64,000 nt of DNA from Bradyrhizobiaceae bacterium (GCA_024103135.1 JAGFIZ010000047.1:107-64106); one strand, 5' to 3'; shown: positions 3,397 to 23,192, counted from the first letter of the stretch. Made by a program: numbers and translations. Notes: generated by a model from the letters alone, not told the origin.

Positions 3397-4476
3397 ATGT
3401 CAGCACAACCAACCGCACCGTTTTACAAGAACCCGGTTCTTTACTTCACCGCTGGCATCCTGGGCTTGTTGCTGGTATTCGTCATCCTGATTTCTATCTA
3501 CGAACCACAAGCCACCCACGAACTGGGGTTGCTACGCTTTGTACTATTAGGTCTGGGCATTGCCTTGTTAGGTTGGGCAATCCATACCCATCATGTGCGT
3601 ACGCTCGAGAAGGCATTGTATCATCCGTTGCAACGGCTCACCGATAGTACCTATGCAATTGCAGAAGGGGCAACGAGTGGACGTGTTGAGTTGGGTCCTA
3701 CTACCGATAGCGACGTACTCCTGGCAAGTGATGCCGTAAACAAGCTGGCGCAAAAGGCATCACGTGACATTGCAGAATACACCCGACTCGAACGTGTTCG
3801 GAGTGAGTTCCTAGGCAATGTTTCTCATGAGCTGCGTACACCAGTGTTTAGTGTGCAGGGATATTTGGAGACGTTGCTTGATGGCGCAGTCGACGATCCA
3901 AGCGTGAATCGGCAGTTCCTCGAGAAGGCCTACCATAACACTAAGCGACTCAACACGCTGTTGAACGACTTGATTGACATATCGCGAATCGAGAGCGGTG
4001 AATTACGGTTGAGCTTTCGTTACTTCGATATGTGCGAGGTCCTCAAGGAGGTTGTGCAATCAATGGAGCACATTGCCTCTCAGCATTCGATAGCCATTGT
4101 GCTCGAGCTACCGAGTGATGACAACTGCAGTGTACTTGGCGATAAGGAGCGCCTTGTGCAGGTGATGACGAACCTCATCGACAATGCACTCAAATACAAT
4201 ACTGAACATGGAACGGTGACGGTGAGCGCAAAGGTGGCGAAGGGTACGATGCACGTAAGTGTATCGGACACGGGCGTTGGTATTGCAGCCGACCAGCTTG
4301 ACAGGATCTTCGAACGCTTCTTCAGAGTTGGCGAAGACCGATCACGCTCCATTGGCGGTTCGGGCCTTGGTCTAGCAATCGTCAAACATATTCTCGAAGC
4401 CCACCAGGCACCGGTTCACGTCTCTAGCGTCGAAGGTAAGGGGACAACCATCAGCTTTGAGTTGAAGACTGCCTAG
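3397..4476 (+). CDS. Sensor histidine kinase with two N-terminal TM helices and a tiny periplasmic loop (intramembrane-sensing type). It is PhoR-like in its H-box (SHELRTPVFSVQGYLETLLDG).
   Basis: HisKA H-box SHELRTP, and the N/G1/G2 boxes (NLIDNALKYN, DTGVGI, GGSGLGLAIVK). It lies 5 nt downstream of the response regulator. Its stop overlaps the stop of the convergent 4473..9239 gene. Confidence 0.85.
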   Translation: MSAQPTAPFYKNPVLYFTAGILGLLLVFVILISIYEPQATHELGLLRFVLLGLGIALLGWAIHTHHVRTLEKALYHPLQRLTDSTYAIAEGATSGRVELGPTTDSDVLLASDAVNKLAQKASRDIAEYTRLERVRSEFLGNVSHELRTPVFSVQGYLETLLDGAVDDPSVNRQFLEKAYHNTKRLNTLLNDLIDISRIESGELRLSFRYFDMCEVLKEVVQSMEHIASQHSIAIVLELPSDDNCSVLGDKERLVQVMTNLIDNALKYNTEHGTVTVSAKVAKGTMHVSVSDTGVGIAADQLDRIFERFFRVGEDRSRSIGGSGLGLAIVKHILEAHQAPVHVSSVEGKGTTISFELKTA

Positions 4477-7400
4477 TTCACCACAACGATGGTTGTTTGA
4501 ATTGGCGTCGTTGACGTGTGTGCTCGAACAACATAAACACCACTGGAAAGCCCCCTGACATCAACGATGAGTGAATGATCTCGTTGATACCACGGTACCA
4601 CTATCTCATTGCCAGCAAGGGTTTGAACAGTGCATGAGGTAATGGGTGCATCGTTTGAGAGGCCAACGAGCACGTGGTCGGATGCCGGTTGCGGATACAC
4701 ACTCGTTGTATGTGGTTCCTGTAGATCAACATCCGCGGTGTATTCCCAAGTAACGTCATCAACGTACAACCCATCGGAGTGCTTGGTCAGGTTCGACCTG
4801 AATCGCAGCCGAAGCTGAAGCGTGTCGGGACTTATGTAGTCAAACACGTGCTGACCTGCACGCCAAGCGTCGGCCCCCTTGGTAGTATCTGCCCAACGTG
4901 GATCAACGCTAGAATTCCACCATGCAATGGTCTGCCAATCATGTGATTGTTCGCCGCTACGCTTAACCTCCAGATATGCAGTGTCAGTCGGATCGACAAA
5001 CGCAGCAACACGCCAGCGTAGAACAATGGCATTGTTCTCTGGAATCAAACCAGGCTGTTGAAATGGGTAGAGGAGCACGGTATCGCGCGCGGAACGTGTG
5101 TAGTCCTGGTTGGGCGATTCAGTAAGGGAGGTAGGTGGACTGTACGACAAGCGCGAGTCCAGGCCCCATTGTCCGCCCATCACATAATAATTCGGCATCG
5201 TATCAAAGGTCTCTTGTCTCCATTCCATGTTTCCTGCAAATACCATCATGCTGTCAGAGAAAGGACTCATGTTCTTGTCGGCATCACGGATTGCAGCACG
5301 AACCTTCCAGAAGCCATCTTCCGGGGCAGCAACGACAAAGGAAAGTGTCTTGCCTGTATCTGATGCGGACACGGCTATCACCGCCGTATCAGCACCACGT
5401 GCGATGAGCACCTGTGCTAGGTTCACGAGTGGAGTTTCTCCATCAAGCCTGAAGCGTGGCATGGTTAACGTAACTCGATGGTATGCCACATCGCTGGAGT
5501 CATAACCCATAACGTTAACCAAGGTGGGTGACCCTGGAAGTTTTGACCCACCTGCAAAGGCCGATGCAGTGCGAGTTGCAGACGTGTCGGTGCCATCCTC
5601 CACATGTAGGGTGTAGGTGTACTCACGGTACGAGGTGAGAGCAGTGTCCCGATAGCTCGTTGTGGCAACCGGCAACGTCGCGATGCGCATGCCATCACGG
5701 AATAAGGCGTACTGTGCGGCAGGGGAAAGGGGCTGACCAAACGTGCGAGATGAAACTGCACTCCAGCCAACATCGATACTCGTTGGCATCGCAGCAATGG
5801 TGTTGGCCCACATCGTGTCTGGAGCTCTCGGCGAGCGTGTGTTGACGATGGCGGTGTACACGTCACTGTCAACAGTGTTGGTGCTGGTTGTATTTCGCAT
5901 GTCTACCCACGATGGGTAGACAATGCCGTTGTAGAAGTCGCAACCCGAATAGTCTCCGGCAAAGGTCCTGCCACTAAATGGATTGTTGCGCAAATCATTG
6001 TCGGCATCACCGACCCTCCTGTCCGTCCAGGTTTGTCCGCCGTCAGTCGAGAGACTCACATAACAGTTAACAAGGATGTTACTCTCGTCGTCACGACTAT
6101 CAAAGTACATCACGGCAACATCGCCAGTAGTAGGATCGATGGCTATCCACGGCCAGAACTGATCATTGGATGTGTCGGAATGCACGACCCTTGGTGTCGA
6201 CCACGTAGTGCCATTGTCGGCTGAGTACGATGAGTAGACGTTTGGTGGATTGTCTGCCGACCAGACAAGGTACAGTCTTCCGTTGCGTGCTCCACCCGTA
6301 TTGTCGACCGACAGGCTTGGATACGCTTCTGCACGAACGGTACCCTTTACTCTTGAATTCACCGTTCCTTCGATCTCTAGCTTCTCGCCGAACGGATTGT
6401 AGGTGTGCAGAATACGTGGCTCTGAAAATGTAACTCCGCCATCTGTGCTTCTAGCGTATCGAACGGCATTCTCCGTGCCGCTATTCCATACTACGTGGAC
6501 GCTACCGTCGGGCCCCGTCCGAGCAAGTGGAAAGCTTTGTCCAAACGTTGCATGCTCACTCGTATGTGGGAAGCGAGCACCTACGGCGATCGGTACGCTC
6601 CAACTTAGCCCCCTATCGGTACTGCGCGAGATAACGATCTGCGTGCTACTGTCGGCATTGATCACACGTTTCCACGGGATGTACAGATTGCCACGGAAGG
6701 GTGATGAAGAAGCCGTGTCGGCATGGACGTAATACTTGTCTTCGAAAGCACTGTCGGCCGTCTGCTTGCCAAGGTGTTCGATGACGGGAATGTGGGTAGG
6801 CCCCCAGGTAAGTCCGCCATCATCAGTAATGGAGATGTAGACGCCATTCTCGCCGAACTGAGGAGTCTGTCCAACGTTAAAGCCACCATAACACAAGTAG
6901 CCACGTCCCTGATGATCAAAGCAAACGGATGGATCGTTGGTGCTTCGCCAGCCTTCATGTGGGTAACCCAACTTGACGTTATGCCAGGTATTGGCGCCGT
7001 CGGTCGAGTAATACGCCCATGTCTGACTGTTGGCTCGATAGTCTACTGCACTACCAATAAGATTGCGAGGATTGAGTGGGTTGACTGCGATCGAACTTTC
7101 ATTCTGCATTGGTTGCTGATCCTGTTCTTCGGCAATCAGCGACACGTTCTCAAACTGCGACGCATACCACGACAATCCTTGAACGAATGGCACCTTGGGC
7201 CAGTCGGGATGCAGATTCGTAGGGTCAGGTGTGGGATGAGCACGCTCCATTGACTGCTTACGTGCCCTATGATCATTGTCCGATGCTTTGGCAACGGAAC
7301 CAGACAGCACCACCAACCCAATTACAATGCCCAGTCCAAGGTCACGCGCCAGGTTTGTCCAATGTCTGTGATGCAACATGTCGCGCAGCTTTCGTGTGAT

Positions 7401-9239
7401 TGCAGGAGCCTCTCGATTTCCATGTCGTTCCAGAATCAATGCATTGCATGCAGTGAGCACGTGCATCGACGATGAGGTCTTTGTGTTGATCCGTGCCGCT
7501 TCTTGAAGCATCGACATTGCCTGTTCAACATTGTTCTGTGCCTGGGCAACCGTGGCTAGCCCGTTCAAGACCAGCGCACGTAATGCCGGTAGGTTGGTAG
7601 AGAGCACCTCGGCATCTTTCAATAGTTGCTCTGCTTCGGAGACCATGCCAATCGAGACGCATGCTCGTGCTTCGAGACATAACAGCGTTATACGTTCGGT
7701 TGTCGTAAGTGCCGGGTGGTTCCGCGCGCGCTGGGTATGCAGTTGTGCTTCGGTGGGCTGACCCATGATGAGTGCATCGCAGGCAAGTCTAATTGACTCG
7801 TCGGCATCGACAGTGGCACCGTCAGCAACGACTACAGTTGACGGCTGTCCATCTACGTCAACAGGAGCTGTATCAACATCGGCTTCAGGCCAATTGACGG
7901 CAAGGGCGGGGTCGACTTCCTTTAACATCCGCTGCGTTATCTCGACGTCTTCTGCAATGTGACCATGCGCAGCAATGATGGCTGCCAACTGCTCTCGTGT
8001 TGCCTGCAAATCAGCTGCATCGTGTTCCTTGGTAAGGATCTCTGCAATTCGATGATGAAGGGCCTTACGTTCCTCATACGAAACGTAATGATAGAAGTAG
8101 GTGAAGGCTAGATCTGATGTAAAGCGATAGGTCGTTGTCTTGATGTTGTATCTCGTACGAACGCCAATGCTCTCGATCATACCAGTGCGTTGCTGTAGTC
8201 TGCGCAAGCTTCTGGCAGCACTTACCACATCAGTGTTCGTTAGTGCGGCAAACAGAAAGGCAGAGAACTCTCTACCCTCGATGGCACCCATTGCAAGACT
8301 AATCGCATCATCCTCTTGAATTTCATGGAGTAGGACGTCGGTAGACGGGTGTGCCCCGAGTTGGACGCCAGACGTTAGTATGCTATCCGTTCGAAGGTGC
8401 CCATCCGACGATATCTCGCCCATTCGCTCCAGGTAACGGACGTATTCGACCATCACGCCAGGGAGTCCACCGCACCGTTCGTTAAGTAAGCCAACTTGTT
8501 CCTCTGTGAGCTTCAGGGAAGGGGCTATGGCATGGAGTACAGATTCCGCGGTAGCGCTGTCGATTGAATCAAGGACAATGTGTTGCGTAGTGCTGGCAAG
8601 CTCAGTGGGCAATGCCGTCAGCGCAAGATTATGTTCACGTGCCAAGCGTTGATCAAATGCCCACACGATGAGCAGCTTGTTCTGTGGGTTTGCTGCAATA
8701 CGCTTTAGCACTTCGAGACTTTGTGGGTCTGACCAGTGTGCTGCATCTACCAACAACACGAACGGTGTGTGAGCCGCAACTCCTTCAAGTGCTTCGACGC
8801 ATTCTTCGACGGCAGCTTTCCGTTTTTGAAGCAGGGCAGCAGTCTCGCGTTTGTATTCGGTAACGTCCTGCCGAACTGCCTTGATTGCATAAAAGATGTC
8901 GCCAGCGATCGGCAATGATGCCAGCAGACTCATACCAATGTTCAGTGCGAGACGCTTCTTGGCAACCTGTTCACCATTCTGATACAGACTCTCGATAGCT
9001 AGCCCAAAGGGCTGAAGGGGTTGTACGCTTGCTACATTCAAGGTGCCAATGGGTTGCCTGCAGTCAACCCTCACGGCTTGATCGCCAAGGTGCTTCTGCA
9101 AGGTATCCAGCAAGAAACTCTTGCCACTGCCCGGCTCACCCGAAACGAATACAACACTGCCAATGCCCTTCTGCCACTGGGTAATGAGTGCATTGAGCGT
9201 AGCACTCTGAGTGGGTCTTCCTGGGATGACGATGCTCAC
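4473..9239 (-). CDS. 1588-aa multidomain protein. The order is an N-terminal P-loop STAND/AAA_16-type NTPase and TPR-like region (~aa 1-620), one hydrophobic TM/signal-like segment (aa ~634-649), a BNR/Asp-box six-bladed beta-propeller (sialidase/sortilin-like), Fn3/Ig-like beta domains, and a T9SS C-terminal sorting domain.
   Basis: Walker A VSGEPGSGKS and VLLVDAAHWSDPQSLEVL (DxxHWxD, typical of AAA_16). TPR-like helices around LTTTERITLLCLEARACVSIGMVSEAEQLL. Hydrophobic segment LGLGIVIGLVVLSGSVAKA. Asp-boxes YYSTDGANTW, ISITDDGGLTW, SRSTDRGLSW, ARSTDGGVTF, SADNGTTW, LSTDGGQTW. The C-terminus SVYPQPASDHVLVGLS...LAGNEIVV...GLSSGVYVVRAHT...TTIVVVN matches the T9SS CTD pattern (YPNPA...GVYxV). 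Confidence 0.7.
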   Translation of the reverse strand: MSIVIPGRPTQSATLNALITQWQKGIGSVVFVSGEPGSGKSFLLDTLQKHLGDQAVRVDCRQPIGTLNVASVQPLQPFGLAIESLYQNGEQVAKKRLALNIGMSLLASLPIAGDIFYAIKAVRQDVTEYKRETAALLQKRKAAVEECVEALEGVAAHTPFVLLVDAAHWSDPQSLEVLKRIAANPQNKLLIVWAFDQRLAREHNLALTALPTELASTTQHIVLDSIDSATAESVLHAIAPSLKLTEEQVGLLNERCGGLPGVMVEYVRYLERMGEISSDGHLRTDSILTSGVQLGAHPSTDVLLHEIQEDDAISLAMGAIEGREFSAFLFAALTNTDVVSAARSLRRLQQRTGMIESIGVRTRYNIKTTTYRFTSDLAFTYFYHYVSYEERKALHHRIAEILTKEHDAADLQATREQLAAIIAAHGHIAEDVEITQRMLKEVDPALAVNWPEADVDTAPVDVDGQPSTVVVADGATVDADESIRLACDALIMGQPTEAQLHTQRARNHPALTTTERITLLCLEARACVSIGMVSEAEQLLKDAEVLSTNLPALRALVLNGLATVAQAQNNVEQAMSMLQEAARINTKTSSSMHVLTACNALILERHGNREAPAITRKLRDMLHHRHWTNLARDLGLGIVIGLVVLSGSVAKASDNDHRARKQSMERAHPTPDPTNLHPDWPKVPFVQGLSWYASQFENVSLIAEEQDQQPMQNESSIAVNPLNPRNLIGSAVDYRANSQTWAYYSTDGANTWHNVKLGYPHEGWRSTNDPSVCFDHQGRGYLCYGGFNVGQTPQFGENGVYISITDDGGLTWGPTHIPVIEHLGKQTADSAFEDKYYVHADTASSSPFRGNLYIPWKRVINADSSTQIVISRSTDRGLSWSVPIAVGARFPHTSEHATFGQSFPLARTGPDGSVHVVWNSGTENAVRYARSTDGGVTFSEPRILHTYNPFGEKLEIEGTVNSRVKGTVRAEAYPSLSVDNTGGARNGRLYLVWSADNPPNVYSSYSADNGTTWSTPRVVHSDTSNDQFWPWIAIDPTTGDVAVMYFDSRDDESNILVNCYVSLSTDGGQTWTDRRVGDADNDLRNNPFSGRTFAGDYSGCDFYNGIVYPSWVDMRNTTSTNTVDSDVYTAIVNTRSPRAPDTMWANTIAAMPTSIDVGWSAVSSRTFGQPLSPAAQYALFRDGMRIATLPVATTSYRDTALTSYREYTYTLHVEDGTDTSATRTASAFAGGSKLPGSPTLVNVMGYDSSDVAYHRVTLTMPRFRLDGETPLVNLAQVLIARGADTAVIAVSASDTGKTLSFVVAAPEDGFWKVRAAIRDADKNMSPFSDSMMVFAGNMEWRQETFDTMPNYYVMGGQWGLDSRLSYSPPTSLTESPNQDYTRSARDTVLLYPFQQPGLIPENNAIVLRWRVAAFVDPTDTAYLEVKRSGEQSHDWQTIAWWNSSVDPRWADTTKGADAWRAGQHVFDYISPDTLQLRLRFRSNLTKHSDGLYVDDVTWEYTADVDLQEPHTTSVYPQPASDHVLVGLSNDAPITSCTVQTLAGNEIVVPWYQRDHSLIVDVRGLSSGVYVVRAHTSTTPIQTTIVVVN

Positions 9240-11055: not shown

Positions 11056-11496
11056 ATGGGGGTGATTCTTTTACTGCATGTTCTGGGTGCAACGATTTGG
11101 ACTGGCGGACATATCGTGCTCGCTGTTTCCGTGTTGCCTTCAGTCTTGCGTAACAAATCACCAGAGTTGCTCTTGCAGTTCGAACGTCGGTATGAACGCA
11201 TCGGCATGCCTGCACTTCTTGCACAGGTAGTCACAGGGTTGATCATGGCTAATGCCATGTTGGGCGATACGGGGACGTGGTTTGGATTTTCGGATCCGAT
11301 AAGCACATTGGTTTCGATCAAGCTTATTCTACTTATGCTCACGGTTGGTCTAGCGATAGATGCGCGGCTTCGCGTATTGCCGCACCTTTCCGAAAACAAT
11401 CTCGTTGACCTTGCTTGGCATGTTATCCCAGTGACGTTGCTGTCAATCGCCTTTGTCGTAGTCGGCGTGTCTTACCGAACGGGTTGGTTCTACTAG
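11056..11496 (+). CDS. CopD/HemJ-like small polytopic membrane protein (4 TM).
   Basis: The N-terminal helix with conserved His (LLLHVLGATIWTGGHIVLAV) resembles the CopD C-terminal/UPF0093 family. It sits beside the copper-dependent oxidase and Sco genes. Confidence 0.4.
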   Translation: MGVILLLHVLGATIWTGGHIVLAVSVLPSVLRNKSPELLLQFERRYERIGMPALLAQVVTGLIMANAMLGDTGTWFGFSDPISTLVSIKLILLMLTVGLAIDARLRVLPHLSENNLVDLAWHVIPVTLLSIAFVVVGVSYRTGWFY

Positions 11497-11629: not shown

Positions 11630-12226
11630 ATGGGTAAGGAGCGAGTACTTGCATTCAGTGATGGCGTGTTAGCTATTGCCATCACGATCATGGTACTAGA
11701 GTTGGAGGTACCAACAACATCAGATCCGCATGCACTGCTGCACGTGCTACCAGTGTTTTTGAGTTACGTGCTAAGCTTCATCTACGTTGGTATCTACTGG
11801 AACAATCATCATCACCTGATGCATAAGGTTGGTCACGTTACTGGTGGAATGCTGTGGGCAAACCTTCATCTTCTGTTCTGGCTCTCATTGTTTCCGTTTG
11901 CAACAGCGTGGATGGGGCAGAATCATTTCGATGCTGCTCCTGCTGCAGTTTATGGCTTCGTCCTGCTTATGGCTGCAATTGCGTATTTGATTCTCAGTAA
12001 CACCATCGTCACTGCTCAAGGCCCACAATCAGAACTGAAGGCAGCCATTGGTTCTGACGTGAAAGGCAAGCTATCGATAGTCCTCTATGCAGTAGCCATT
12101 CCCATTGCCTTATTTATCCCTTGGATTGCAGAGCTTATTTACGCCATCGTTGCAGGCATGTGGCTAATACCCGACCGCAGAATTGAACGAAACATCAAAC
12201 ACACTCACAACACATCGCCACAATAG
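11630..12226 (+). CDS. TMEM175/DUF1211-family potassium channel.
   Basis: Signature RVLAFSDGVLAIAITIMVLEL in TM1, with a second repeat of the 6-TM architecture. The start was taken at the ATG (MGKERVLAFSDG) rather than the track's TTG at 11597. Confidence 0.75.
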   Translation: MGKERVLAFSDGVLAIAITIMVLELEVPTTSDPHALLHVLPVFLSYVLSFIYVGIYWNNHHHLMHKVGHVTGGMLWANLHLLFWLSLFPFATAWMGQNHFDAAPAAVYGFVLLMAAIAYLILSNTIVTAQGPQSELKAAIGSDVKGKLSIVLYAVAIPIALFIPWIAELIYAIVAGMWLIPDRRIERNIKHTHNTSPQ

Positions 12227-14268: not shown

Positions 14269-14556
14269 AACTGACGATTTCAATAATCGGGGTTTTCTTT
14301 GCTTTAATCACGAAAAAACCAGATGTTCGCATCCGATTGGTATCAGCGTAGTACCATGGATGAAGATGTTGATGATTGACGGATTCTGCTACGGAACGTG
14401 ATTGAAGGCATTGGTGTAGTTGTAGGAGCGACGCTGATCGAGCTTCGACTTTATGGTATGGTGAACTGTAAACGGAGACCATACTACCGGGCATAAAGCC
14501 GAGTTCTGTGAATACGATGGACACACTTGTTTTCACATTACAGAGGGGACGGCTTT

Positions 14557-15099
14557 ATGTACCTCCAGGATGTAATCTGGACTATTGCTCTTACGGGCAT
14601 GAGTCTGGTAGCACTGGGATTCCTACTCATCATCTTCCGCGCCAGTAAGCAAGCGGATGAAGCAACCAGGGCAGCGTCGAACGCCACTGCCCGAAAGCTC
14701 AAAACATGGATGTTTGGCATCCTGCTGTTGATCTTCGTAAGCGGGAGCTGGGCAACCTTACACGACTACCCGATTGTCTTCCAGGATGGCTCGTCCGGAC
14801 AGCAAGCCGTGACGGTGGTAGGAAGAATGTGGTCATGGGATGTAATCCCCGACACAATTCGGACTGGTGTACCAATTGAGTTTCAGGTTACCAGCGAGGA
14901 TGTGAATCACGGTTTTGCGATCTATGATCCGAACGGACGAATCCTGTCGCAAACCCAGGCAATGCCCGGCTATACGAACCGCCTGCACTATACCTTTAGT
15001 CAGCCAGGTACCTATACGATTCAGTGCCTTGAATTCTGCGGAATGGGGCATGCACCAATGTCGTACCCACTCGAAGTCGTCGCGAAAGGAGGCATGTAG
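14557..15099 (+). CDS. Heme-copper oxidase subunit II (CuA cupredoxin, no cytochrome c domain).
   Basis: Two N-terminal TM helices, then a cupredoxin with CuA ligands: HGFAIYD...CLEFCGMGHAPM (H...CxExCGxxHxxM). The start was moved to the ATG at 14557 (the track start at 14527 is TTG). Confidence 0.75.
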   Translation: MYLQDVIWTIALTGMSLVALGFLLIIFRASKQADEATRAASNATARKLKTWMFGILLLIFVSGSWATLHDYPIVFQDGSSGQQAVTVVGRMWSWDVIPDTIRTGVPIEFQVTSEDVNHGFAIYDPNGRILSQTQAMPGYTNRLHYTFSQPGTYTIQCLEFCGMGHAPMSYPLEVVAKGGM

Positions 15100-15102
15100 T
15101 CT

Positions 15103-16605
15103 ATGGCATCATTGACGCTATATCCCGAAGACGAACGCCTTGTTGGAGCGAGCCGTGTTGCGTTTAACCTTTACATGATTACGGCGATAGGGTTATTCGT
15201 AATTCTGATGATCATTGGGCTTACCATGCGCCTGAGTCAGGCGATGTGGTTCGAAGTGCAGGTAGACCTGTTCTATAAACTCTTGTCCATGCATGGAACA
15301 GGAATGGTAGGTACGGCAGCGCTGTCAACTACCGCCGTGATGTGGTACTTCCTGCGCAAGTACGTGAACCTGCATCTCTGGGCCTTCATTACCAACTACG
15401 TGCTCTTCATGCTGGGAGCCGTGTGCATCATTGTGGCCATCTTTATTGGTGATTATGGTGCCTTGTGGACGTTTCTGTATCCGTTGCCAGTTAACGGTAT
15501 GGGGCTTTGGTCGTCATACACCGCCGCACTATTCATGGCTGGCAACTTGCTAATCGGCGTCGGCAGTTTGTTGTTCTACTTCGACGCAGCAGCAGCGATC
15601 ATCAAGAAACATGGAAACCTTGGTCGAGCCTTAGGGGTGCAGTGGTTGTTCAAGGGCACAATTGATCCCAATCATCCTAAGGCAGTAGTGGCAAGCACAA
15701 TGGTCATCATTGCCAACTCACTTGGCATTCTTGCCGGAGCCGTAGTGCTCGTGATGAGTTTGATCAACGTCTTCTATCCCGACATGCATCTTGATGCATT
15801 GCTTGCCAAGAACCTTACCTACTGGTTTGGTCACATGTACATCAATGCAACCATTTACATGGGTGTGATTGCCGTGTACGAATTGTTGCCCCGATACACC
15901 GGAAAACCATACGCCATATCACGTCCGTTTATCTGGTCTTGGTCGGCAAGTACCTTGTTCGTGATCATCGTGTACCCACACCATCTGATGATGGACTTTG
16001 CACAGCCACAGTGGCTAACGATCATGGGACAGGTGATCTCATGGAGTGCTGGCTTCCCAGTGTTCCTCGTCACCACGTTTGGTGCGCTACAGAACCTTCA
16101 CCGGTCGGGTATCAAGTGGAAGACGCCATCAAGATTTATGATACTCTCGCTCTTTGGTTGGGCAGCAGGCATCGTCCCCGCAATTCTTGATGGAACGGTA
16201 AGAAACAACCTTGTGATGCACAATACACAGTGGGTTCCAGGACACTTCCACTTCTATCTGGTTCTTGGTGTACTGTCCATGGTACTTGCTTTGATGTTTC
16301 ACGTAACAGGCAGTCGTACACAGACTCCACCGAATTCCTCTGCAGACAAGATTGGATTTTCATTCTATCTGATAGGGGGCTTGGTGTTTGTGCTGGCCTT
16401 CCTTGCAGCAGGACACATGAGTGTTGCAAGGCGCATGGCAACACACTTGGAACAATGGATCCCAACCGACAAAATGGGCTCGATTGGCGCGACCATTTTG
16501 ATTCTGGGAATGATCTATTTTGCAGTGCGAATATCAATTGGTTTGCTTCGCTCACCGTCAAGTTCCCAAGCCACAGGTGCAAGCTCTTCGAGTAGTAGTC
16601 AGTAG
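15103..16605 (+). CDS. Heme-copper oxidase superfamily subunit I (divergent, B-family/NOR-like; 500 aa).
   Basis: Subunit-I hallmarks are WFGHMYIN (CuB His region), PHHLMMDF (the HH CuB ligands) and VPGHFHFYLVLG (the HxH haem ligands). It is 3 nt downstream of subunit II. It lacks the canonical GHPEVY/GHPIVY Tyr spacing. Confidence 0.75.
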   Translation: MASLTLYPEDERLVGASRVAFNLYMITAIGLFVILMIIGLTMRLSQAMWFEVQVDLFYKLLSMHGTGMVGTAALSTTAVMWYFLRKYVNLHLWAFITNYVLFMLGAVCIIVAIFIGDYGALWTFLYPLPVNGMGLWSSYTAALFMAGNLLIGVGSLLFYFDAAAAIIKKHGNLGRALGVQWLFKGTIDPNHPKAVVASTMVIIANSLGILAGAVVLVMSLINVFYPDMHLDALLAKNLTYWFGHMYINATIYMGVIAVYELLPRYTGKPYAISRPFIWSWSASTLFVIIVYPHHLMMDFAQPQWLTIMGQVISWSAGFPVFLVTTFGALQNLHRSGIKWKTPSRFMILSLFGWAAGIVPAILDGTVRNNLVMHNTQWVPGHFHFYLVLGVLSMVLALMFHVTGSRTQTPPNSSADKIGFSFYLIGGLVFVLAFLAAGHMSVARRMATHLEQWIPTDKMGSIGATILILGMIYFAVRISIGLLRSPSSSQATGASSSSSSQ

Positions 16606-17194
16606 TCTCGCGGTGCTCCTTCTTGGAGGTAGCACCTTCTGGTATGTAACCGATTCACTCCGTGCATATACGTCAGAGACGGCACGGAGGATTGATGTAG
16701 AAGAACATCCGCGTCCTGTACCTGAGGTTGTGTTGCAAACCTCCTCGGGACAGGACGTTGTGTTTTCGTCGCTGCGTGGACGCTGGGTCGTGGTAGAGTT
16801 TATCTACACACGGTGCATGTCGTTTTGCTTTGCGCAGGGTAGTGAACTCTCCTCAATGCAGGAAACGCTGAAGGAAGGAATCTCAAACAATCGTGTACAG
16901 CTGTTGAGTGTAAGCTTCGACAGGGAGTACGACGTACCGGTACGACTTAAGGCATACCAACAGCGCTACTCAAACAGTACGGAAGGCTGGTTCGTAGCCA
17001 GGCCAGCAACTGACAGTGATTTGCGGACAATGCTTGACGTGTTCTCCGTAGTCGTAATTCCCGACGGCATGGGTGGTTATGTCCACAATGCTGCTATTGC
17101 CGTGGTAAACCCGGAAGGCAAGCTCATCGCCATCCATGATTGGAACAAGGCCGATGACGTAGCGAAGATGATTAACTCACGGTTACCGATATGA
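16520..17194 (+). CDS. SCO1/SenC-family copper chaperone (thioredoxin-like, one N-terminal TM).
   Basis: The CxxxC motif (EFIYTRCMSFCFAQ) and a conserved His region (HNAAIAVVNPEGK). The track start overlaps subunit I by 86 nt. An in-frame GTG near 16613, just after the subunit-I stop, is the more likely start. Confidence 0.7.
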   Translation: MQCEYQLVCFAHRQVPKPQVQALRVVVSSLAVLLLGGSTFWYVTDSLRAYTSETARRIDVEEHPRPVPEVVLQTSSGQDVVFSSLRGRWVVVEFIYTRCMSFCFAQGSELSSMQETLKEGISNNRVQLLSVSFDREYDVPVRLKAYQQRYSNSTEGWFVARPATDSDLRTMLDVFSVVVIPDGMGGYVHNAAIAVVNPEGKLIAIHDWNKADDVAKMINSRLPI

Positions 17195-17757
17195 AGCGCA
17201 CAACTCTGTTAGGGCTTGTAGGCATCGCACTGTGGGTTGTAAACATGTTGCCACCGGTGCGATCGCTAATTGAAACAACGATGACCTCGCAGATGCTTGT
17301 CCAGCTTACCATGCTCACGATGTCTGGTTGGTTTGTTGCGCACCTCGTCCCCCTACATGTGCGCGACCACATTGATCGTTGGAATGCTCAAGGCATTGCG
17401 GGACTTCTTCTGGCAACCGTAACCAGTATGGTGTGGATGTTGCCGCGGATGATGGATAGCTCACTGAGCGATGGGACAATCACTGTAGCGAAGTTTGTCA
17501 CCGTGCCACTACTCATCGGCGTACCACTAGCTCTTAGTTGGCCGTTGATGGGATTTGTCGTTAGAGGCTTCTTCCTTCTGGAGGCAGTAGCCACAGCATT
17601 CCGGCTTGGTTGGCTGTACCTGATCTCTCCGGAGCGGGTATGCGTGAACTATTTGATTGACGATCAGCAAGTACTAGGCATCGTCATGCTCTGCATTGGA
17701 GGGGTGCTCTTTGCATACTTCGGCTGGAAGTTGATGTTCGGCACTATTCGAACATGA
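17191..17757 (+). CDS. Polytopic membrane protein of unknown function. It is translationally coupled to sco and may be an oxidase assembly factor.
   Basis: Four-nt overlap with sco and 5-6 predicted TM helices. The functional suggestion comes only from context. Confidence 0.35.
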   Translation: MKRTTLLGLVGIALWVVNMLPPVRSLIETTMTSQMLVQLTMLTMSGWFVAHLVPLHVRDHIDRWNAQGIAGLLLATVTSMVWMLPRMMDSSLSDGTITVAKFVTVPLLIGVPLALSWPLMGFVVRGFFLLEAVATAFRLGWLYLISPERVCVNYLIDDQQVLGIVMLCIGGVLFAYFGWKLMFGTIRT

Positions 17758-18543: not shown

Positions 18544-18647
18544 AGTTTTGTTCACGAAAAACCAAATAACGGTAGTCGGGACGCCTAGCAAGCTAGGTTG
18601 CACTACGCAAACAGACAAGTCAACACCACGATTTTCACAGAGATCAA

Positions 18648-19346
18648 ATGAGATCAGACACCACGATCACCGCTCCCGGAATTGGTGCCAGTCAAAGAGC
18701 AATGTTGATTGCATTAAAGCGGTTCGGCGAGGCTACGTTGGGCGAGGTTGAGACTACCGTGCACATTGCACCAGAGACAGTGTGCAGTCACATGCAGGCA
18801 CTGGTGGCACAAGGATTGGTGACGAGGAGCGGATTAAAGCGTTCTGGTCCCGGCAGACCACGCGTATGCTACCGACTCACCGAAGCAGGGGAAGCACTCT
18901 TCCCGCAGAAGCATAAGGAACTGCTTCAAGAACTGGCGGAGTATCTAACGCAGTCGGGACAGAGTGCTCTCCTCGAAGCATTCTTCGAGGCGCGGCTAAA
19001 ACGTAAACGAGCGGAAGCGGAACAAAGAATTGGAGCGATTGACCAAGCAGAACGCTTGGAACTGTTGGCGCGTATCCTTACGGAAGAAGGCTTTATCGCC
19101 GAGGTTGTAACGGAAGGCGGCGAGCAACAACTCCGCATCTGCCACTGTCCGCTGCGCGATCTCGTTAAGGTCACCCGTCTTCCATGCAGAGCCGAAATGT
19201 CGTTTGTTACCACTACGCTTGGCGCTGTTACCCACCGACATAGCTTCATCCCAGACGGTGCGCATGCTTGTACCTATACCATCATTCCACTAGCAGATCA
19301 CGAACAATCACATTCCAAGAAAAAATCCTCTCGGAGAGCAGTATGA
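18648..19346 (+). CDS. Winged-helix (ArsR/DeoR-like, COG2345-type) transcriptional regulator with a C-terminal Cys/His cluster (SufR-like putative Fe-S/metal sensor).
   Basis: N-terminal wHTH (QRAMLIALKRFGEATLGEVETTVHIAPETVCSHMQALVAQGLVTR). C-terminal ICHCPLRDLVKVTRLPC...HACTY. Confidence 0.5.
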   Translation: MRSDTTITAPGIGASQRAMLIALKRFGEATLGEVETTVHIAPETVCSHMQALVAQGLVTRSGLKRSGPGRPRVCYRLTEAGEALFPQKHKELLQELAEYLTQSGQSALLEAFFEARLKRKRAEAEQRIGAIDQAERLELLARILTEEGFIAEVVTEGGEQQLRICHCPLRDLVKVTRLPCRAEMSFVTTTLGAVTHRHSFIPDGAHACTYTIIPLADHEQSHSKKKSSRRAV

Positions 19347-20014
19347 ACATAACCTCAAATTCGCGTGTTGGCGAGATTGCTACCCAACACCCATTGTCGA
19401 CTAGAGTGTTTTCCAGACATGGTATCGACTTCTGCTGCGGTGGCGGCATGGCTCTGGCAGATGCCTGTGAGAAGCGCGGACTAGATACCGACGTGGTGAT
19501 CTCGGAGATCGAGCAAACAATGGCAGCCCCCGAAGCAAGTGCTGTAGAGCGGTGGGACAGCAAGCCAGTGGCCGAACTCGTCAACCACATCGTCAAACAG
19601 TACCACGAGCCCCTGCATGAAGAGTTACCTCGCCTGGAGGCGATGGTGCGCAAGGTGTATCGAGTCCATGGCGACAAAGAGCCCGTGATGCTCGGCTCAC
19701 TGCTCGAAACCTACCTACATCTAAAGGCTGAAGTCGACGAGCATCTCCGCGAGGAAGAAGAGGTCCTCTTCCCAGCCATCGTGGCCGGTAAGGACAAGCC
19801 AGCCCCGCTATTGAATGCCTTTGTTGACGACCACACATCTGTTGGTGCCGACCTCAAGCGTATACGCGAGATTACGGGCGACTTTGTGGTACCAGCAGCA
19901 GCATGTAATACGTGGACGGCATTGTGGCACGGGCTTGCAGCTCTTGAAACAGATCTTCATGAGCACATTCACCTCGAGAACAACGTGCTCTTCCCACGTG
20001 TAACAGCAGGATAA
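19343..20014 (+). CDS. ytfE: Iron-sulfur cluster repair di-iron protein (RIC/YtfE/ScdA family: ScdA_N + hemerythrin-like).
   Basis: The N-terminus VGEIATQHPLSTRVFSRHGIDFCCGG is the ScdA_N motif. Hemerythrin-like H/E motifs follow: HEPLHEE, HGDKEP, HLREEEEVLFP, LHEHIHLENNVLFPRV. The start was moved to MNITSN. Confidence 0.8.
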   Translation: MNITSNSRVGEIATQHPLSTRVFSRHGIDFCCGGGMALADACEKRGLDTDVVISEIEQTMAAPEASAVERWDSKPVAELVNHIVKQYHEPLHEELPRLEAMVRKVYRVHGDKEPVMLGSLLETYLHLKAEVDEHLREEEEVLFPAIVAGKDKPAPLLNAFVDDHTSVGADLKRIREITGDFVVPAAACNTWTALWHGLAALETDLHEHIHLENNVLFPRVTAG

Positions 20015-20019
20015 CCCAC

Positions 20020-20082
20020 CCTACGGGCACAAGGAGCAGCTTGGTTTCTAGTACCTTGCCAGGCTGCTCCCGTAGTGCCCAC
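20020..20082 (+). terminator. Stem-loop (possible terminator/attenuator) between ytfE and the DUF488 gene.
   Basis: GGAGCAGCTTGG ... CCAGGCTGCTCC (11/12 bp), flanked by an outer CCCTACGGG / CCCGTAG pairing. No U-tract follows. Confidence 0.3.
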
Positions 20083-20434
20083 TTTGACGATGCACATTCA
20101 GATTAAACGCGCCTACGACGCACCACAACATTCAGACGGTATGCGAGTGCTTGTGGATCGGCTCTGGCCACGAGGCATCACTAAGGAGCATGCAAGGGTC
20201 GACCTCTGGCTTAAAGACGTTGCCCCCTCAACGGAACTCAGGAAGTGGTTTGCACACGATGCTGCACGGTGGACTGAGTTCTGTAAGCGATACAAGAAGG
20301 AACTCCAACACAATCCAGCGTTTGCGGAGCTACAAGCCATCGCATCATCACAGGCAATTACCTTGGTTTACTCTGCCAAGGACAGTGAGCACAATCAAGC
20401 AGTGGTGCTCAAAGCACTGTTAGAACAACGTTAG
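20075..20434 (+). CDS. DUF488-family protein (YeaO-like).
   Basis: RVLVDRLWPRGITKE...LWLKDVAPSTELRKWF is the DUF488 core. Confidence 0.55.
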   Translation: MPTLTMHIQIKRAYDAPQHSDGMRVLVDRLWPRGITKEHARVDLWLKDVAPSTELRKWFAHDAARWTEFCKRYKKELQHNPAFAELQAIASSQAITLVYSAKDSEHNQAVVLKALLEQR

Positions 20435-20657: not shown

Positions 20658-21170
20658 ATGCCACGATATGCTGCCTTCCTTCGAGGTGTAAGCCCCACCA
20701 ATGCTACCATGCCTGCTCTGCGGAGCAGTGCCGAAGCAGCCGGCTTTACGAATGTCACAACCGTATTGGCGACAGGGAACATTCTGTTTGATTCGAGTAA
20801 GAAGTCCGAGTCGACATTGGCTGCACTACTCGAAGTACACCTACGCGAAACGTTGTCGCGTGACTTTCCGGTAATCGTTCGAAGCGTAGACTATCTTCAG
20901 GACATGCTCTCGTCAAAACCGTATGATGGATTCACCGTGCATCCGTCGGACAAACGTGTGGTCACCTTTCTTGCCAAACCGTTGACTCAACAACTATCCT
21001 TTCCGATTGAACAGGATGGCGCAAGGATACTCTGTGTGCGTGGAACGGAGGCATTTACCGTTTACACACCATCGCCCAACGGACCTGTGTTTATGAAGTT
21101 GCTCGAACGAACGTTCGGCAAGAGCATAACCACACGCACTTGGGATACGGTGATTAAGGTTGCCAAATAA
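20658..21170 (+). CDS. DUF1697-family protein.
   Basis: YAAFLRGVSPTNATMPALRSSAEAAGF...TVLATGNILF is the DUF1697 N-terminal pattern. Confidence 0.55.
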   Translation: MPRYAAFLRGVSPTNATMPALRSSAEAAGFTNVTTVLATGNILFDSSKKSESTLAALLEVHLRETLSRDFPVIVRSVDYLQDMLSSKPYDGFTVHPSDKRVVTFLAKPLTQQLSFPIEQDGARILCVRGTEAFTVYTPSPNGPVFMKLLERTFGKSITTRTWDTVIKVAK

Positions 21171-21266: not shown

Positions 21267-23192
21267 CTACTTCTTGTCGTCGTCGACTACGGTGTAGTCT
21301 GCGTCTTCAACAGTAGACCCATCGCTTGCTGTGCTGTCCTGAGCATTACCTGCTTGTCCTGCAGCATCGGCACCTGCTTGCGCACCATCCTGTGATGCCT
21401 GTTGGTACATCTTGGTTGATGCCTCGCTCCACAATTCATTCAATGCATCCATTGCTGCACGAATGTCTGTTGGATTGTTCTTCGTTGCATCGGCAAGACG
21501 ATCCTTAGCCTTGATGATGCGATCCTTGGTGTCGAGATCCAACTTGTCTTCGAACTCCTTGAGTTGCTTCTCGGTGCTGTATACCAATGCATCTGCTTGG
21601 TTGCGGAGCTCGATTTCTTCCTTGCGTTTCTTGTCGTCTGCGGCATGATCTTGAGCTTCACGCTTCATGCGCTCAACTTCTGTCTTGTCTAGACCACTGG
21701 AACCAGTGATGCGAATGTTCTGCTCCTTACCGCTTGCCTTGTCCTTTGCCGTTACACTCAGGATACCATTGGCATCGATGTCGAACGTTACTTCGATCTG
21801 TGGGATACCACGTGGTGCTGGTGGAATGCCGTCAAGATGGAACTTGCCGAGAGTCTTGTTGTCGGCAGCCATTGGACGCTCGCCTTGGAGGACGTGGATC
21901 TCGACGCTTGGCTGGTTGTCGCTTGCAGTAGAGAAGGTCTCCGACTTGCGGTGTGGAATGGTTGTGTTTGAAGGAATCATCTGCGTCATCACACCACCCA
22001 TGGTTTCGATACCCAAGGATAGTGGCGTCACGTCAAGCAGCAACACGTCCTTCACATCGCCTGCCAACACGCCGCCTTGAATTGCAGCACCAACGGCAAC
22101 AACCTCGTCGGGGTTCACGCCGCGTGATGGATCCTTACCGAAGAAGTTCTTCACGATCTCCTGAATCTTAGGAATACGTGTCGAGCCCCCTACCAAAATC
22201 ACCTCGTCGATTTGCGATGGTGTAAGATTGGCATCGCGGAGTGCGATTTCGAGTGGCTTCAGACTTCTGTCGAACAGATCGGCGCAGAGCTTCTCGAATG
22301 TTGCTCGAGTGATGTTCACGTTCAGGTGCTTCGGACCGTCCTGTGTTGCCGTAATGAATGGCAGATTAACGTCGGTCTGCAGCATCTGGCTGAGCTCGAT
22401 CTTGGCCTTCTCTGCAGCTTCACGCAGACGCTGAAGGGCCATCGGATCCTTGCGAAGGTCGATCCCTTCTTGCTTCTGGAATTCTGCTGCAAGATGGTCA
22501 ATGAGTCGCTGGTCGAAGTTATCTCCACCAAGGTGTGTATCGCCATTGGTGCTCTTTACTTCGAAGACGCCTTCACCGATTTCCAGTACCGAGATGTCGA
22601 ACGTACCACCACCAAGGTCATACACGGCCACGGTCTGGTTCTGTCCCTTCTTGTCGAGACCATAAGCAAGAGCTGCTGCCGTTGGCTCGTTGATGATTCG
22701 GCGGACAGTGAGTCCGGCGATTTCGCCAGCATCCTTTGTTGCCTGACGTTGAGCATCGTTGAAGTATGCAGGAACGGTAACCACCGCTTCGGTGATCTTC
22801 TCGCCCAGATAATCTTCTGCCGTCTGCTTCATCTTTTGCAGAATCATGGCGCTGATCTCTGGTGGCGAATAGTGCCTACCATCGATGTCAACACGAGCAG
22901 TGTTGTTTTCGCCTGCAACGACCTTGTAGGGGACGGCTTTTGCTTCGTCGGTGACTTCGTTCATCTGCCGACCCATGAAGCGCTTGATCGAGTAGACGGT
23001 GTTGTGTGGGTTGGTTACGGCCTGACGTTTTGCGGCCTGACCCACGAGGCGCTCACCGCTCTTGGTGAACGCTACGACCGAGGGCGTGGTACGCAAGCCT
23101 TCTGCGCTTGCGATCACGATTGGCTGAGCCCCCTCCATGACCGACACAACGGAGTTCGTTGTGCCAAGGTCGATTCCAATAATTTTTCCCAT
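21267..23192 (-). CDS. dnaK: Molecular chaperone DnaK (Hsp70).
   Basis: [18 protein letters not shown]..., [13 protein letters not shown], and full-length similarity to Hsp70. Confidence 0.97.

Follow-up and report, generated by a model that had tools for sequence, protein, structure and literature searches.

The 64,000-nucleotide stretch of DNA considered here (hereafter the window; GCA_024103135.1, JAGFIZ010000047.1:107-64106) carries a four-gene cassette, norS-norY-senC-orf1, which we assign from its sequence to the sNOR family of heme-copper oxidoreductases (HCOs) as an ordinary member, and not to the B-family oxygen reductases. By analogy with related enzymes, its product is most likely a CuA-dependent nitric oxide (NO) reductase that detoxifies or respires NO. 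Descriptions of the sNOR family, of the residue that marks it, and of its gene cluster date back to 2007-2008, and a review of them appeared in 2024. An earlier note on this DNA, which saw in the locus a divergent heme-copper oxidase, overrated its novelty: the family is described and widespread, and the locus is a routine addition to it that is mis-named in public records, where the NorY protein of the window is deposited as a "cbb3-type cytochrome c oxidase".

Enzymes of the sNOR type are widespread, are regularly mis-annotated, and may be a source of the greenhouse gas nitrous oxide (N2O). Naming this one correctly shifts the physiology predicted for its host from an additional route of O2 respiration to NO scavenging. 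The present locus adds a comparative link between the cassette and genes of NO stress, and it flags two uncharacterised partners, orf1 and a family of SufR-like regulators. It adds little that is new on NO versus O2 activity, on the active-site metal, or on energy conservation.

Active-site residues of NorY

NorY, a subunit I of the 12-helix type, matches the COX1 family (PF00115) with an E value of 4.4e-50 and scores far under the curated cutoffs of all named oxidase models in NCBIfam (for TIGR02891, aa3-type CtaD, 69.9 bits against a cutoff of 670). We aligned the window protein, its close homologs, and distant representatives with the deposited sequence of the Thermus thermophilus ba3 oxidase, obtained from a PDB search. 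The six metal-ligand histidines that the earlier note had recognized are all present: H64 and H383 at the low-spin heme, H381 at the high-spin heme, and H244, H293, and H294 at the non-heme metal (CuB/FeB) site, aligned respectively with ba3 H72, H386, H384, H233, H282, and H283 and invariant in the clade. The note had also remarked that the CuB region lacks the cross-linked tyrosine of GHPEVY and GHPIVY, and two alignments bear this out. The segment WFGH244-M-Y-I-N248 aligns column by column with the A-type GH-P-E-V-Y and with ba3 H233-P-I-V-Y237, placing Asn248 at the position of the cross-link tyrosine (ba3 Y237, bovine Y244), and a separate HMMER alignment to A-type oxidases agrees.

The K-channel, which the note had proposed to check along with this helix-VI tyrosine, is largely lost. 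Only Y248 of the ba3 K-path is kept (as Y259), whereas Y244, S261, S309, and T312 are replaced by V, I, V, and V. The S309 position is valine in the window NorY and in all close homologs, while the HPxVY oxidases in the same alignment keep serine; ba3 W229 is a tyrosine in NorY. The ba3 oxidase (PDB 1EHK, 1XME) otherwise resembles the window enzyme in pairing a minimal CuA subunit II with subunit I and in having the six histidines, Y248, the R449/R450 pair, and the HNT-W-V-GHFH motif of helix X, but differs from it in all of the replaced residues and in possessing a His-Tyr cofactor. Conserved in their place are the Y259-E260 pair, which is specific to the NorY subclade, and T324. E260, which adjoins the equivalent of ba3 Y248, occurs in at least 90% of close homologs and also in relatives of 53%, 45%, and 43% identity (P0121, Cytobacillus, and Ruegeria), and it is not conserved across the wider clade that carries Asn at the tyrosine position.

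Two tyrosines were considered as substitutes for the cross-linked residue and rejected: Y246 (His+2) and Y291 (before the HH pair) vary among orthologs, being Phe and Trp in Ruegeria. A third, Y385 of HFHFY, lies two residues after the low-spin heme histidine and is both invariant across the whole Asn clade and specific to it, the position being Gln in ba3 and Met, Thr, Ala, or Ile in HPxVY relatives. As a substitute it was likewise discarded, as the alignment would place it on helix X, one turn from the proximal histidine and outside the distal pocket.

More than 100 database clusters are 70-78% identical to NorY, and an exhaustive search of 1.84 billion cluster representatives returned 489 related clusters; close homologs come from Gemmatimonadota, Proteobacteria, and Armatimonadota. 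Of the top 150 representatives, 90 cover the motif and could be aligned. Asn stands at the tyrosine position in 76 of these, and the 10 with HPxVY are the weakest and most distant matches. Full-length relatives down to ~140 bits all carry Asn, and HPxVY oxidases appear only at 129 bits or less. In a neighbour-joining tree, built without labelled sNOR, nNOR, or bNOR references, the Asn sequences form a monophyletic clade apart from the HPxVY sequences.

Family assignment

The residue at the tyrosine position differs between families, being Tyr in oxygen reductases, Glu in cNOR and qNOR, Asn in sNOR, Gln in eNOR, Asp in gNOR, and again Asn in CuANOR (bNOR) (Table A4 in PMC8756737, after Hemp & Gennis 2008). 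The sNOR enzymes are further described as having a CuA subunit, lacking S309, and carrying a conserved Glu at a location unused by other HCOs (PMC11214002). We assign NorY to sNOR because the Asn, the CuA subunit, and the loss of S309 were all found in it, with E260 as a candidate for the conserved Glu, and because each alternative failed. The earlier note had left the choice between a B-family oxidase and a NOR-type enzyme; of these, the NOR-type reading stands and can be narrowed to sNOR by Asn248 and the gene order, while the oxidase reading falls with the missing helix-VI tyrosine and the lost K-path.

That the protein might be a merely divergent ba3-like cytochrome c oxidase of the B-family is suggested by its minimal CuA subunit II and short subunit I without D-channel signature, by the B-type ancestry of sNOR in the published phylogeny (PMC11214002), and by the NCBI label 'B(O/a)3-type chain I' on a Rhodanobacteraceae homolog. 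With Y237 replaced by Asn and S309, T312, Y244, and S261 all hydrophobic, with the HPxVY sequences grouping apart in the tree, and with a NorY family profile that reaches only 23-34 bits against ba3 chains in the PDB, we regard this as extremely improbable. The same profile search scores A-type oxidases at ~42 bits, and PDB sequence and fold searches both rank A-type oxidases above ba3. The predicted NorY structure (pLDDT 74, pTM 0.81) has the HCO fold, with TM-scores of ~0.78 to A-type oxidases and 0.65 to a B-type; no solved structure of a NorY-family member was found in PDB searches. The nearest tyrosine-containing representatives score alike against ba3 and bovine COX1 (the bovine sequence being only partly checked). 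Since our own sequence and fold data do not confirm B-family ancestry, this ancestry rests on the published phylogeny.

Asn248, the loss of S309, the intact CuA site, and the bis-His low-spin heme together exclude bNOR, nNOR, eNOR, gNOR, cNOR/qNOR, and cbb3. The bNOR enzymes share the Asn, but they keep a ba3-like K-channel including S309 and are found in Bacillales only (PMC11214002), whereas NorY has Val at that position and homologs outside Bacillales. nNOR has a cNOR-like active site with Glu and a His/Met low-spin heme (PMC11214002), in contrast to Asn248 and the H64/H383 pair of NorY, and no Glu-type sequence was found among the top 150 representatives. For eNOR, Gln would be expected instead of N248, and the 150 closest representatives yielded no eNOR-type sequence. 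In gNOR, one active-site histidine is replaced by Asp and subunit II lacks the CuA ligands (PMC11214002), whereas all three active-site histidines are present here and the CuA site is complete. Finally, cNOR/qNOR and the C-family cbb3 oxidases were discarded, as the PDB search with the family profile, run to E values of 1, matched A-type and ba3 chains alone and retrieved neither NorB nor qNOR nor CcoN, and as the partner subunit is a CuA cupredoxin without cytochrome c subunits.

A sister NOR-like family (bNOR, nNOR, eNOR, or gNOR), or other chemistry on another small molecule, is accordingly improbable, if less so than a B-family oxidase. The Asn active site common to bNOR (PMC8756737, PMC11214002) and the report that nNOR is the closest relative of sNOR (10.1101/592808) speak for it; besides the residues just listed and the spread of homologs over Gemmatimonadota, Proteobacteria, and Armatimonadota, it is opposed by a cassette that is gene-for-gene homologous to that of a named sNOR host, Ruegeria (Silicibacter). 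bNOR and sNOR are reported to be convergent and not sister groups. The characterised electrogenic bNOR/qCuANOR of Bacillus (Calidifontibacillus) azotoformans has, like the window enzyme, a predicted active site of three His and Asn, a CuA subunit, and B-family-like ancestry (PMC11214002; Table A4 in PMC8756737), but where it retains S309 the window has Val, together with conserved Y259, E260, and T324. The characterised CuA NO reductase of Rhodothermus marinus, an eNOR, is likewise B-family-derived and free of the Tyr cofactor, and its cytoplasmic proton path is conserved, but it differs in its diagnostic Gln and its ba3-like K-channel.

Gene order and the named sNOR cassettes

The four open reading frames (ORFs) are co-directional (plus strand, 14527-17757) and nearly without intergenic space: norS and norY are 3 nt apart, and the start of orf1 overlaps the senC stop by 4 nt. 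The gene set listed by the earlier note (a CuA subunit II, a 500-residue subunit I, a Sco protein, and a membrane protein) is thus found complete (Table 1). We compared 80 genome loci, the closest ones retrieved with subunit I at identities of at least 64%, with Nitrosomonadaceae not among them. Order and strand are identical in all 80, the few absent genes being due to contig ends. The same four-gene order is found on the megaplasmid of Ruegeria pomeroyi DSS-3 and in Cytobacillus solani, whose NorY is 45% identical to that of the window, and genome papers on ammonia-oxidizing bacteria describe an alternative NOR gene cluster norSY-senC-orf1, NE0683-86 of Nitrosomonas europaea (PMC4940428).

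Known sNOR hosts include N. europaea (NE0683-86), Nitrococcus mobilis, Ca. Methylomirabilis (Damo_0801-0802), and Ruegeria/Silicibacter pomeroyi, and Table A4 of PMC8756737 names the genus Silicibacter among such hosts. Their systems share with the window the gene order, Asn at the tyrosine position, a CuA subunit II, the CxxxC of Sco, and a membrane protein of ~190 residues, with Nitrosomonas compared by description only. Ruegeria pomeroyi, the current name of Silicibacter pomeroyi, provides the best plasmid match. Its cassette is 43% (NorY, E 6e-124), 40% (SenC), 41% (orf1), and 32% (NorS) identical to that of the window, and its NorY carries GHVFIN and YEILP, so that the H-x-x-x-N and Y-E-(L/I)-LP motifs are common to both. 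The order there is a divergent Rrf2 regulator, subunit II, subunit I, SCO, a 189-residue hypothetical protein, a formate/nitrite transporter, and a cytochrome c, with a truncated hemoglobin and ccoNOQP in the upstream flank. The Ruegeria record mis-annotates subunit II as 'cytochrome C oxidase subunit I'. The window departs from these sNOR systems in regulation and host. A SufR-like three-Cys regulator and RIC lie near its cassette, where Ruegeria has an Rrf2 regulator and Rhodanobacteraceae have an FNR/DNR box. Its host lineage is a different one, represented by a metagenome-assembled genome with 52% G+C and a protein with a type IX secretion system (T9SS) tail, and the 64 kb contain no nitrification or denitrification genes.

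Table 1. Coordinates of the cassette and of selected genes outside it, in window positions.
Feature	Position	Strand	Description	Basis or remark
norS upstream region	14269..14556	+	presumed promoter and leader	288-nt gap after ClC gene stop
norS	14557..15099	+	subunit II, N-terminal membrane anchor and CuA cupredoxin domain	PF00116, TIGR02866
norY	15103..16605	+	catalytic subunit I, sNOR-type heme-copper oxidoreductase, 500 aa	PF00115
senC	16577..17194	+	Sco-family copper chaperone, N-terminal membrane anchor	PF02630; start uncertain
orf1	17191..17757	+	188-aa polytopic membrane protein, conserved fourth cassette gene	synteny; without Pfam or NCBIfam match
SufR-like regulator	18648..19346	+	winged-helix regulator, 232 aa, candidate NO/Fe-S sensor; outside cassette	TIGR02702 67.6 bits, below cutoff
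RIC/YtfE	19343..20014	+	di-iron Fe-S repair protein; outside cassette	TIGR03652 235.8 bits, cutoff 204.7
CopD-like gene	11056-11496

Two of the start sites call for comment. The longest norS ORF begins at 14527 (190 aa), but the likely start is ATG 14557 (180 aa), which was chosen by independent gene calls on near-identical contigs, seen in many sequencing runs, and which is preceded at 8-9 nt by a Shine-Dalgarno-like GAGGGG. An apparent 86-nt overlap of senC and norY is an artefact of the longest-ORF rule. The candidate senC starts are GTG 16577 and GTG 16613, the latter preferred by gene callers. We favor a start upstream of 16613, here GTG 16577, that overlaps the 3' end of norY, since the conserved part of the protein extends back to R24 and the first residue of the Ruegeria SenC corresponds to residue 22-23.

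Subunit II, the copper chaperone, and orf1

NorS matches the COX2 family (PF00116, E 8.5e-9) and TIGR02866 (75.6 bits). The ligands of its binuclear CuA site, H128, C167, E169, C171, H175, and M178 (numbered on the 190-residue ORF), are complete and invariant in 79 orthologs. No CxxCH heme c motif was found in NorS, and none of the four gene products of the cassette is a heme c protein, in keeping with the earlier description of subunit II as a minimal cupredoxin without cytochrome c. SenC matches SCO1-SenC (PF02630, E 1.4e-13) and has the CxxxC motif and distal histidine by which the Sco/SenC family is recognized, C99-x3-C103 and H188 (numbered on the 224-residue ORF) being invariant in 81 sequences.

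The fourth gene, orf1, follows senC in 78 of the 80 loci, both exceptions lying at contig ends, as well as in Ruegeria (E 6e-24) and Cytobacillus. Its family comprises ~530 clusters, all labelled hypothetical and without Pfam domain. Eight helices are seen in the AlphaFold model (pLDDT 83.6), and the PDB yielded no solved structure related to it. Invariant residues include W82-M-L-P85, D89, K101, E131, R138, C151, and D158-Q159. When 124 members were scanned singly, 7 matched Caa3_CtaG (PF09678, best E 4.7e-5) and 12 matched DUF1404 (PF07185, best E 1.5e-4), all below the curated cutoffs. The window protein itself matches neither, and Cytobacillus orf1 has a weak precomputed DUF1404 match. The product may be a short assembly factor of the CtaG/DUF1404 kind or an accessory subunit. 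As the matches are weak and confined to a minority of members, we treat the CtaG-like role as a lead and not as a finding.

Nitric oxide or oxygen reduction

NO reductase activity is predicted mainly because sNOR is argued to share its active site with bNOR, which is a biochemically proven NO reducer (PMC11214002). In addition, Nitrococcus mobilis makes N2O and has sNOR as its sole NOR (PMC5665590). Genomic context points to NO as well: the Ruegeria cassette has an Rrf2 regulator gene on one side and a formate/nitrite transporter gene on the other, and the regulator family described below keeps company with NnrS and RIC. In the mechanism that we envisage, a periplasmic cytochrome c or cupredoxin would give electrons to CuA, which would have been loaded with copper by SenC, and the electrons would pass through the low-spin heme to the center formed by the high-spin heme and the non-heme metal, where two NO would be converted to N2O and water. 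The protons would probably have a cytoplasmic origin and travel along a modified K-like path, from E260/Y259/T324 up to N248, so that turnover would be electrogenic. The orf1 product would be an obligate partner, acting either as a metal-insertion or assembly factor or as a small accessory subunit. Because the window contains no nir, nos, or nar genes and the cassette is adjoined by a regulator of the Fe-S-sensor type with RIC, the likeliest role here would be to scavenge NO, either as a defence against nitrosative stress or in partial denitrification, rather than to denitrify completely.

The serious rival is an oxidase role, in which the sNOR-family enzyme would be mainly a high-affinity O2 reductase under microoxic conditions, perhaps NO-tolerant, with NO reduction as a side activity as in ba3 and cbb3. 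In N. europaea, all sNOR genes, but not those of cNOR, are up 2.7-10.8-fold under O2 limitation, and the authors favor a high-affinity oxidase (Sedlacek et al., bioRxiv 10.1101/765727; PMC6967387). An FNR/DNR-type box upstream of norS in 11 of 76 loci fits low-O2 induction, although DNR and NNR use the same box; the conserved glutamates of NorB are absent from NorY; and copper handling is built into the cassette through Sco and possibly a CtaG-like protein. Oxygen reductases, on the other hand, need the His-Tyr cross-link as the fourth electron donor. This redox-active cofactor is absent, Asn being universal in the clade, and there is no alternative conserved tyrosine near the metal ligands, given the variation of Y246 and Y291. 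Models of these families contain no migrated tyrosine, and four-electron O2 reduction has been argued to be impossible for them (PMC11214002). The universal loss of the tyrosine cofactor without a conserved substitute thus argues against efficient four-electron O2 reduction, and we consider a primary oxidase function unlikely while still taking it seriously.

Several further points, together with the expression data from N. europaea, weigh against an sNOR that serves as an NO reductase. We found no report of a purified or assayed sNOR in the searchable literature up to 2026. The two putative copper-handling genes of the cassette suit a copper active site as well as an iron one. NorY was placed by means of diagnostic residues, gene order, a single named reference (Ruegeria), and a neighbour-joining tree, and our own data do not confirm B-family ancestry. 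As for genomic context, the 64-kb window, in which nir, nos, and nar genes were not found, is otherwise housekeeping in content. The flanks of the 80 loci are without general conserved neighbours beyond the four genes and showed no recurring nir or nos within 6 kb, and in the window neither an operator shared by the cassette and the regulator operon nor a palindrome was found in their upstream regions.

A SufR-like regulator family and RIC

The neighbours that the earlier note had named, a CopD-like gene, a Cys-rich regulator, and YtfE, are all present, the last scoring above its family cutoff as RIC (Table 1). The distance of 2.6 kb given there has to be corrected, as the regulator starts 0.9 kb past the cassette end. 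The gene call for RIC (223 aa) overlaps the regulator stop by 4 nt, and the two genes form a translationally coupled operon. In the C-terminal domain of the regulator, C167, C180, and C208 are invariant in 40 family members. The family is small, with 93 clusters, and is annotated solely as 'ArsR family'.

Homologs of the regulator lie within 6 kb of an sNOR cassette in 4 of the 80 loci, three of them from Gemmatimonadota, whose NorY proteins are nearest to that of the window. In these Gemmatimonadota loci, the regulator family occurs with RIC, an Mrp/NUBPL Fe-S carrier, and DUF2249 proteins adjoining the cassette. On Acidobacteriota-type contigs, the regulator gene comes immediately after NnrS, and RIC and a DUF2249-hemerythrin are encoded close by. 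In Fodinibius, the gene before it is hemerythrin-like, and the surroundings include genes for DUF2249, ferredoxin, CopD, cupredoxin, and COX1 proteins. The regulator-family regions are 18648-20014 in the window and 3625-5711, 3645-5711, 4224-5639, 4782-5414, and 394-1068 in loci L087, L088, L090, L006, and L056, respectively.

From its cysteines and its gene neighbourhoods, the family looks like an undescribed Fe-S-based NO or nitrosative-stress regulator. The suggestion of the earlier note that the neighbourhood points to NO therefore holds in part: it is borne out by the regulator-RIC operon and by the company that the regulator family keeps in other phyla (NnrS, RIC, DUF2249, and the sNOR cassette), and it is weakened by the lack of general neighbours and of a shared operator. 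In a broader and rather doubtful reading, the family would consist of undescribed Fe-S NO sensors that control, across several phyla, a nitrosative-stress regulon of NnrS, RIC, DUF2249, and Fe-S carrier genes to which the sNOR cassette would also belong; independently of this, orf1 would serve as a CtaG-like factor dedicated to metal insertion, which would imply that sNOR has copper and not iron at its active site and is a copper-based NO reductase.

Our comparison of flanks is qualitative, as greedy ORF calling in high-GC loci gave many antisense artefacts. Recurrent trpA, trpB, and accD flanks reflect vertical synteny within Rhodanobacteraceae.

Upstream regions

In the region between the ClC gene and norS (14269..14556), neither a sigma-70 consensus nor an FNR/DNR box nor a palindrome was found. 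A 10-mer, TCACGAAAAA, is present both upstream of norS (14308-14317) and upstream of the regulator (18552-18561), within a match of ~16/19 bases. This sharing is marginal, with ~0.1 such matches expected by chance, and TCACGAAAAA is neither enriched nor conserved upstream of norS in other loci.

Elsewhere in the family, two kinds of candidate regulatory site were seen. The FNR/DNR-type box mentioned above, TTGATC-N2-GATCAA in perfect or near-perfect form, lies ~70-78 nt upstream of norS and occurs in 0 of 74 controls. The loci that have it all belong to Rhodanobacteraceae/Lysobacterales (L007, L021, L027, L034, L038, L042, L062, L063, L064, L067, and L075), and the box suits control by NO or by low O2 alike. 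On the Ruegeria megaplasmid, the interval separating norS from the divergent Rrf2 gene contains a perfect 13-1-13 palindrome, ATATTAGGTATTT-A-AAATACCTAATAT (L086 5423-5449, NC_006569.1), which is likely an operator for NsrR-type control of the sNOR operon.

Other neighbours and the host label

A TMEM175-type potassium channel gene (11630-12226) lies 2.3 kb upstream of the cassette in the window, and homologs ~60% identical to its product are encoded directly beside the cassette in three unrelated loci (L013 4795-5382, L037 8721-9305, and L054 8684-9271), so that this gene may travel with the cassette. In Gemmatimonadota, a membrane protein of ~440 residues without Pfam family recurs beside the cassette, between the Fe-S carrier and DUF2249 genes (L006 999-2324, L024 2167-3420 on the minus strand, L035 3110-4438, and L056 1913-3397), and faintly matches the C-terminal portion of COX1 (E 2.7e-4). 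RIC is followed in the window by DUF488 (20075-20434) and DUF1697 (20658-21170) genes. A DUF488 gene also lies near the homologous regulator of Fodinibius (L090 8121-8528), beside DUF2249 and Crp-family regulator genes, and the proximity of DUF488 and the regulator may be a weak recurring association.

Exact copies of the window proteins are deposited in a metagenome-assembled genome labelled 'Bradyrhizobiaceae bacterium' (MCO64656xx). This label looks wrong because of the 52% G+C content of the window, the T9SS Por_Secre_tail sorting domain on one of its proteins, and the named relatives of the regulator, which belong to Acidobacteriota, Gemmatimonadota, Balneolota, and Bacteroidota; among the stretches of the window that bear on this doubt are 4473-9239 and 21267-23192. 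No rRNA, tRNA, or Rfam match was found in the window. The protein with the sorting domain, of 1588 residues and encoded at 4473-9239 on the minus strand, combines an N-terminal AAA_16 (STAND-like) ATPase and BNR/sialidase-like repeats with the C-terminal T9SS domain, an odd pairing of cytoplasmic-type and secreted-type modules in one ORF.

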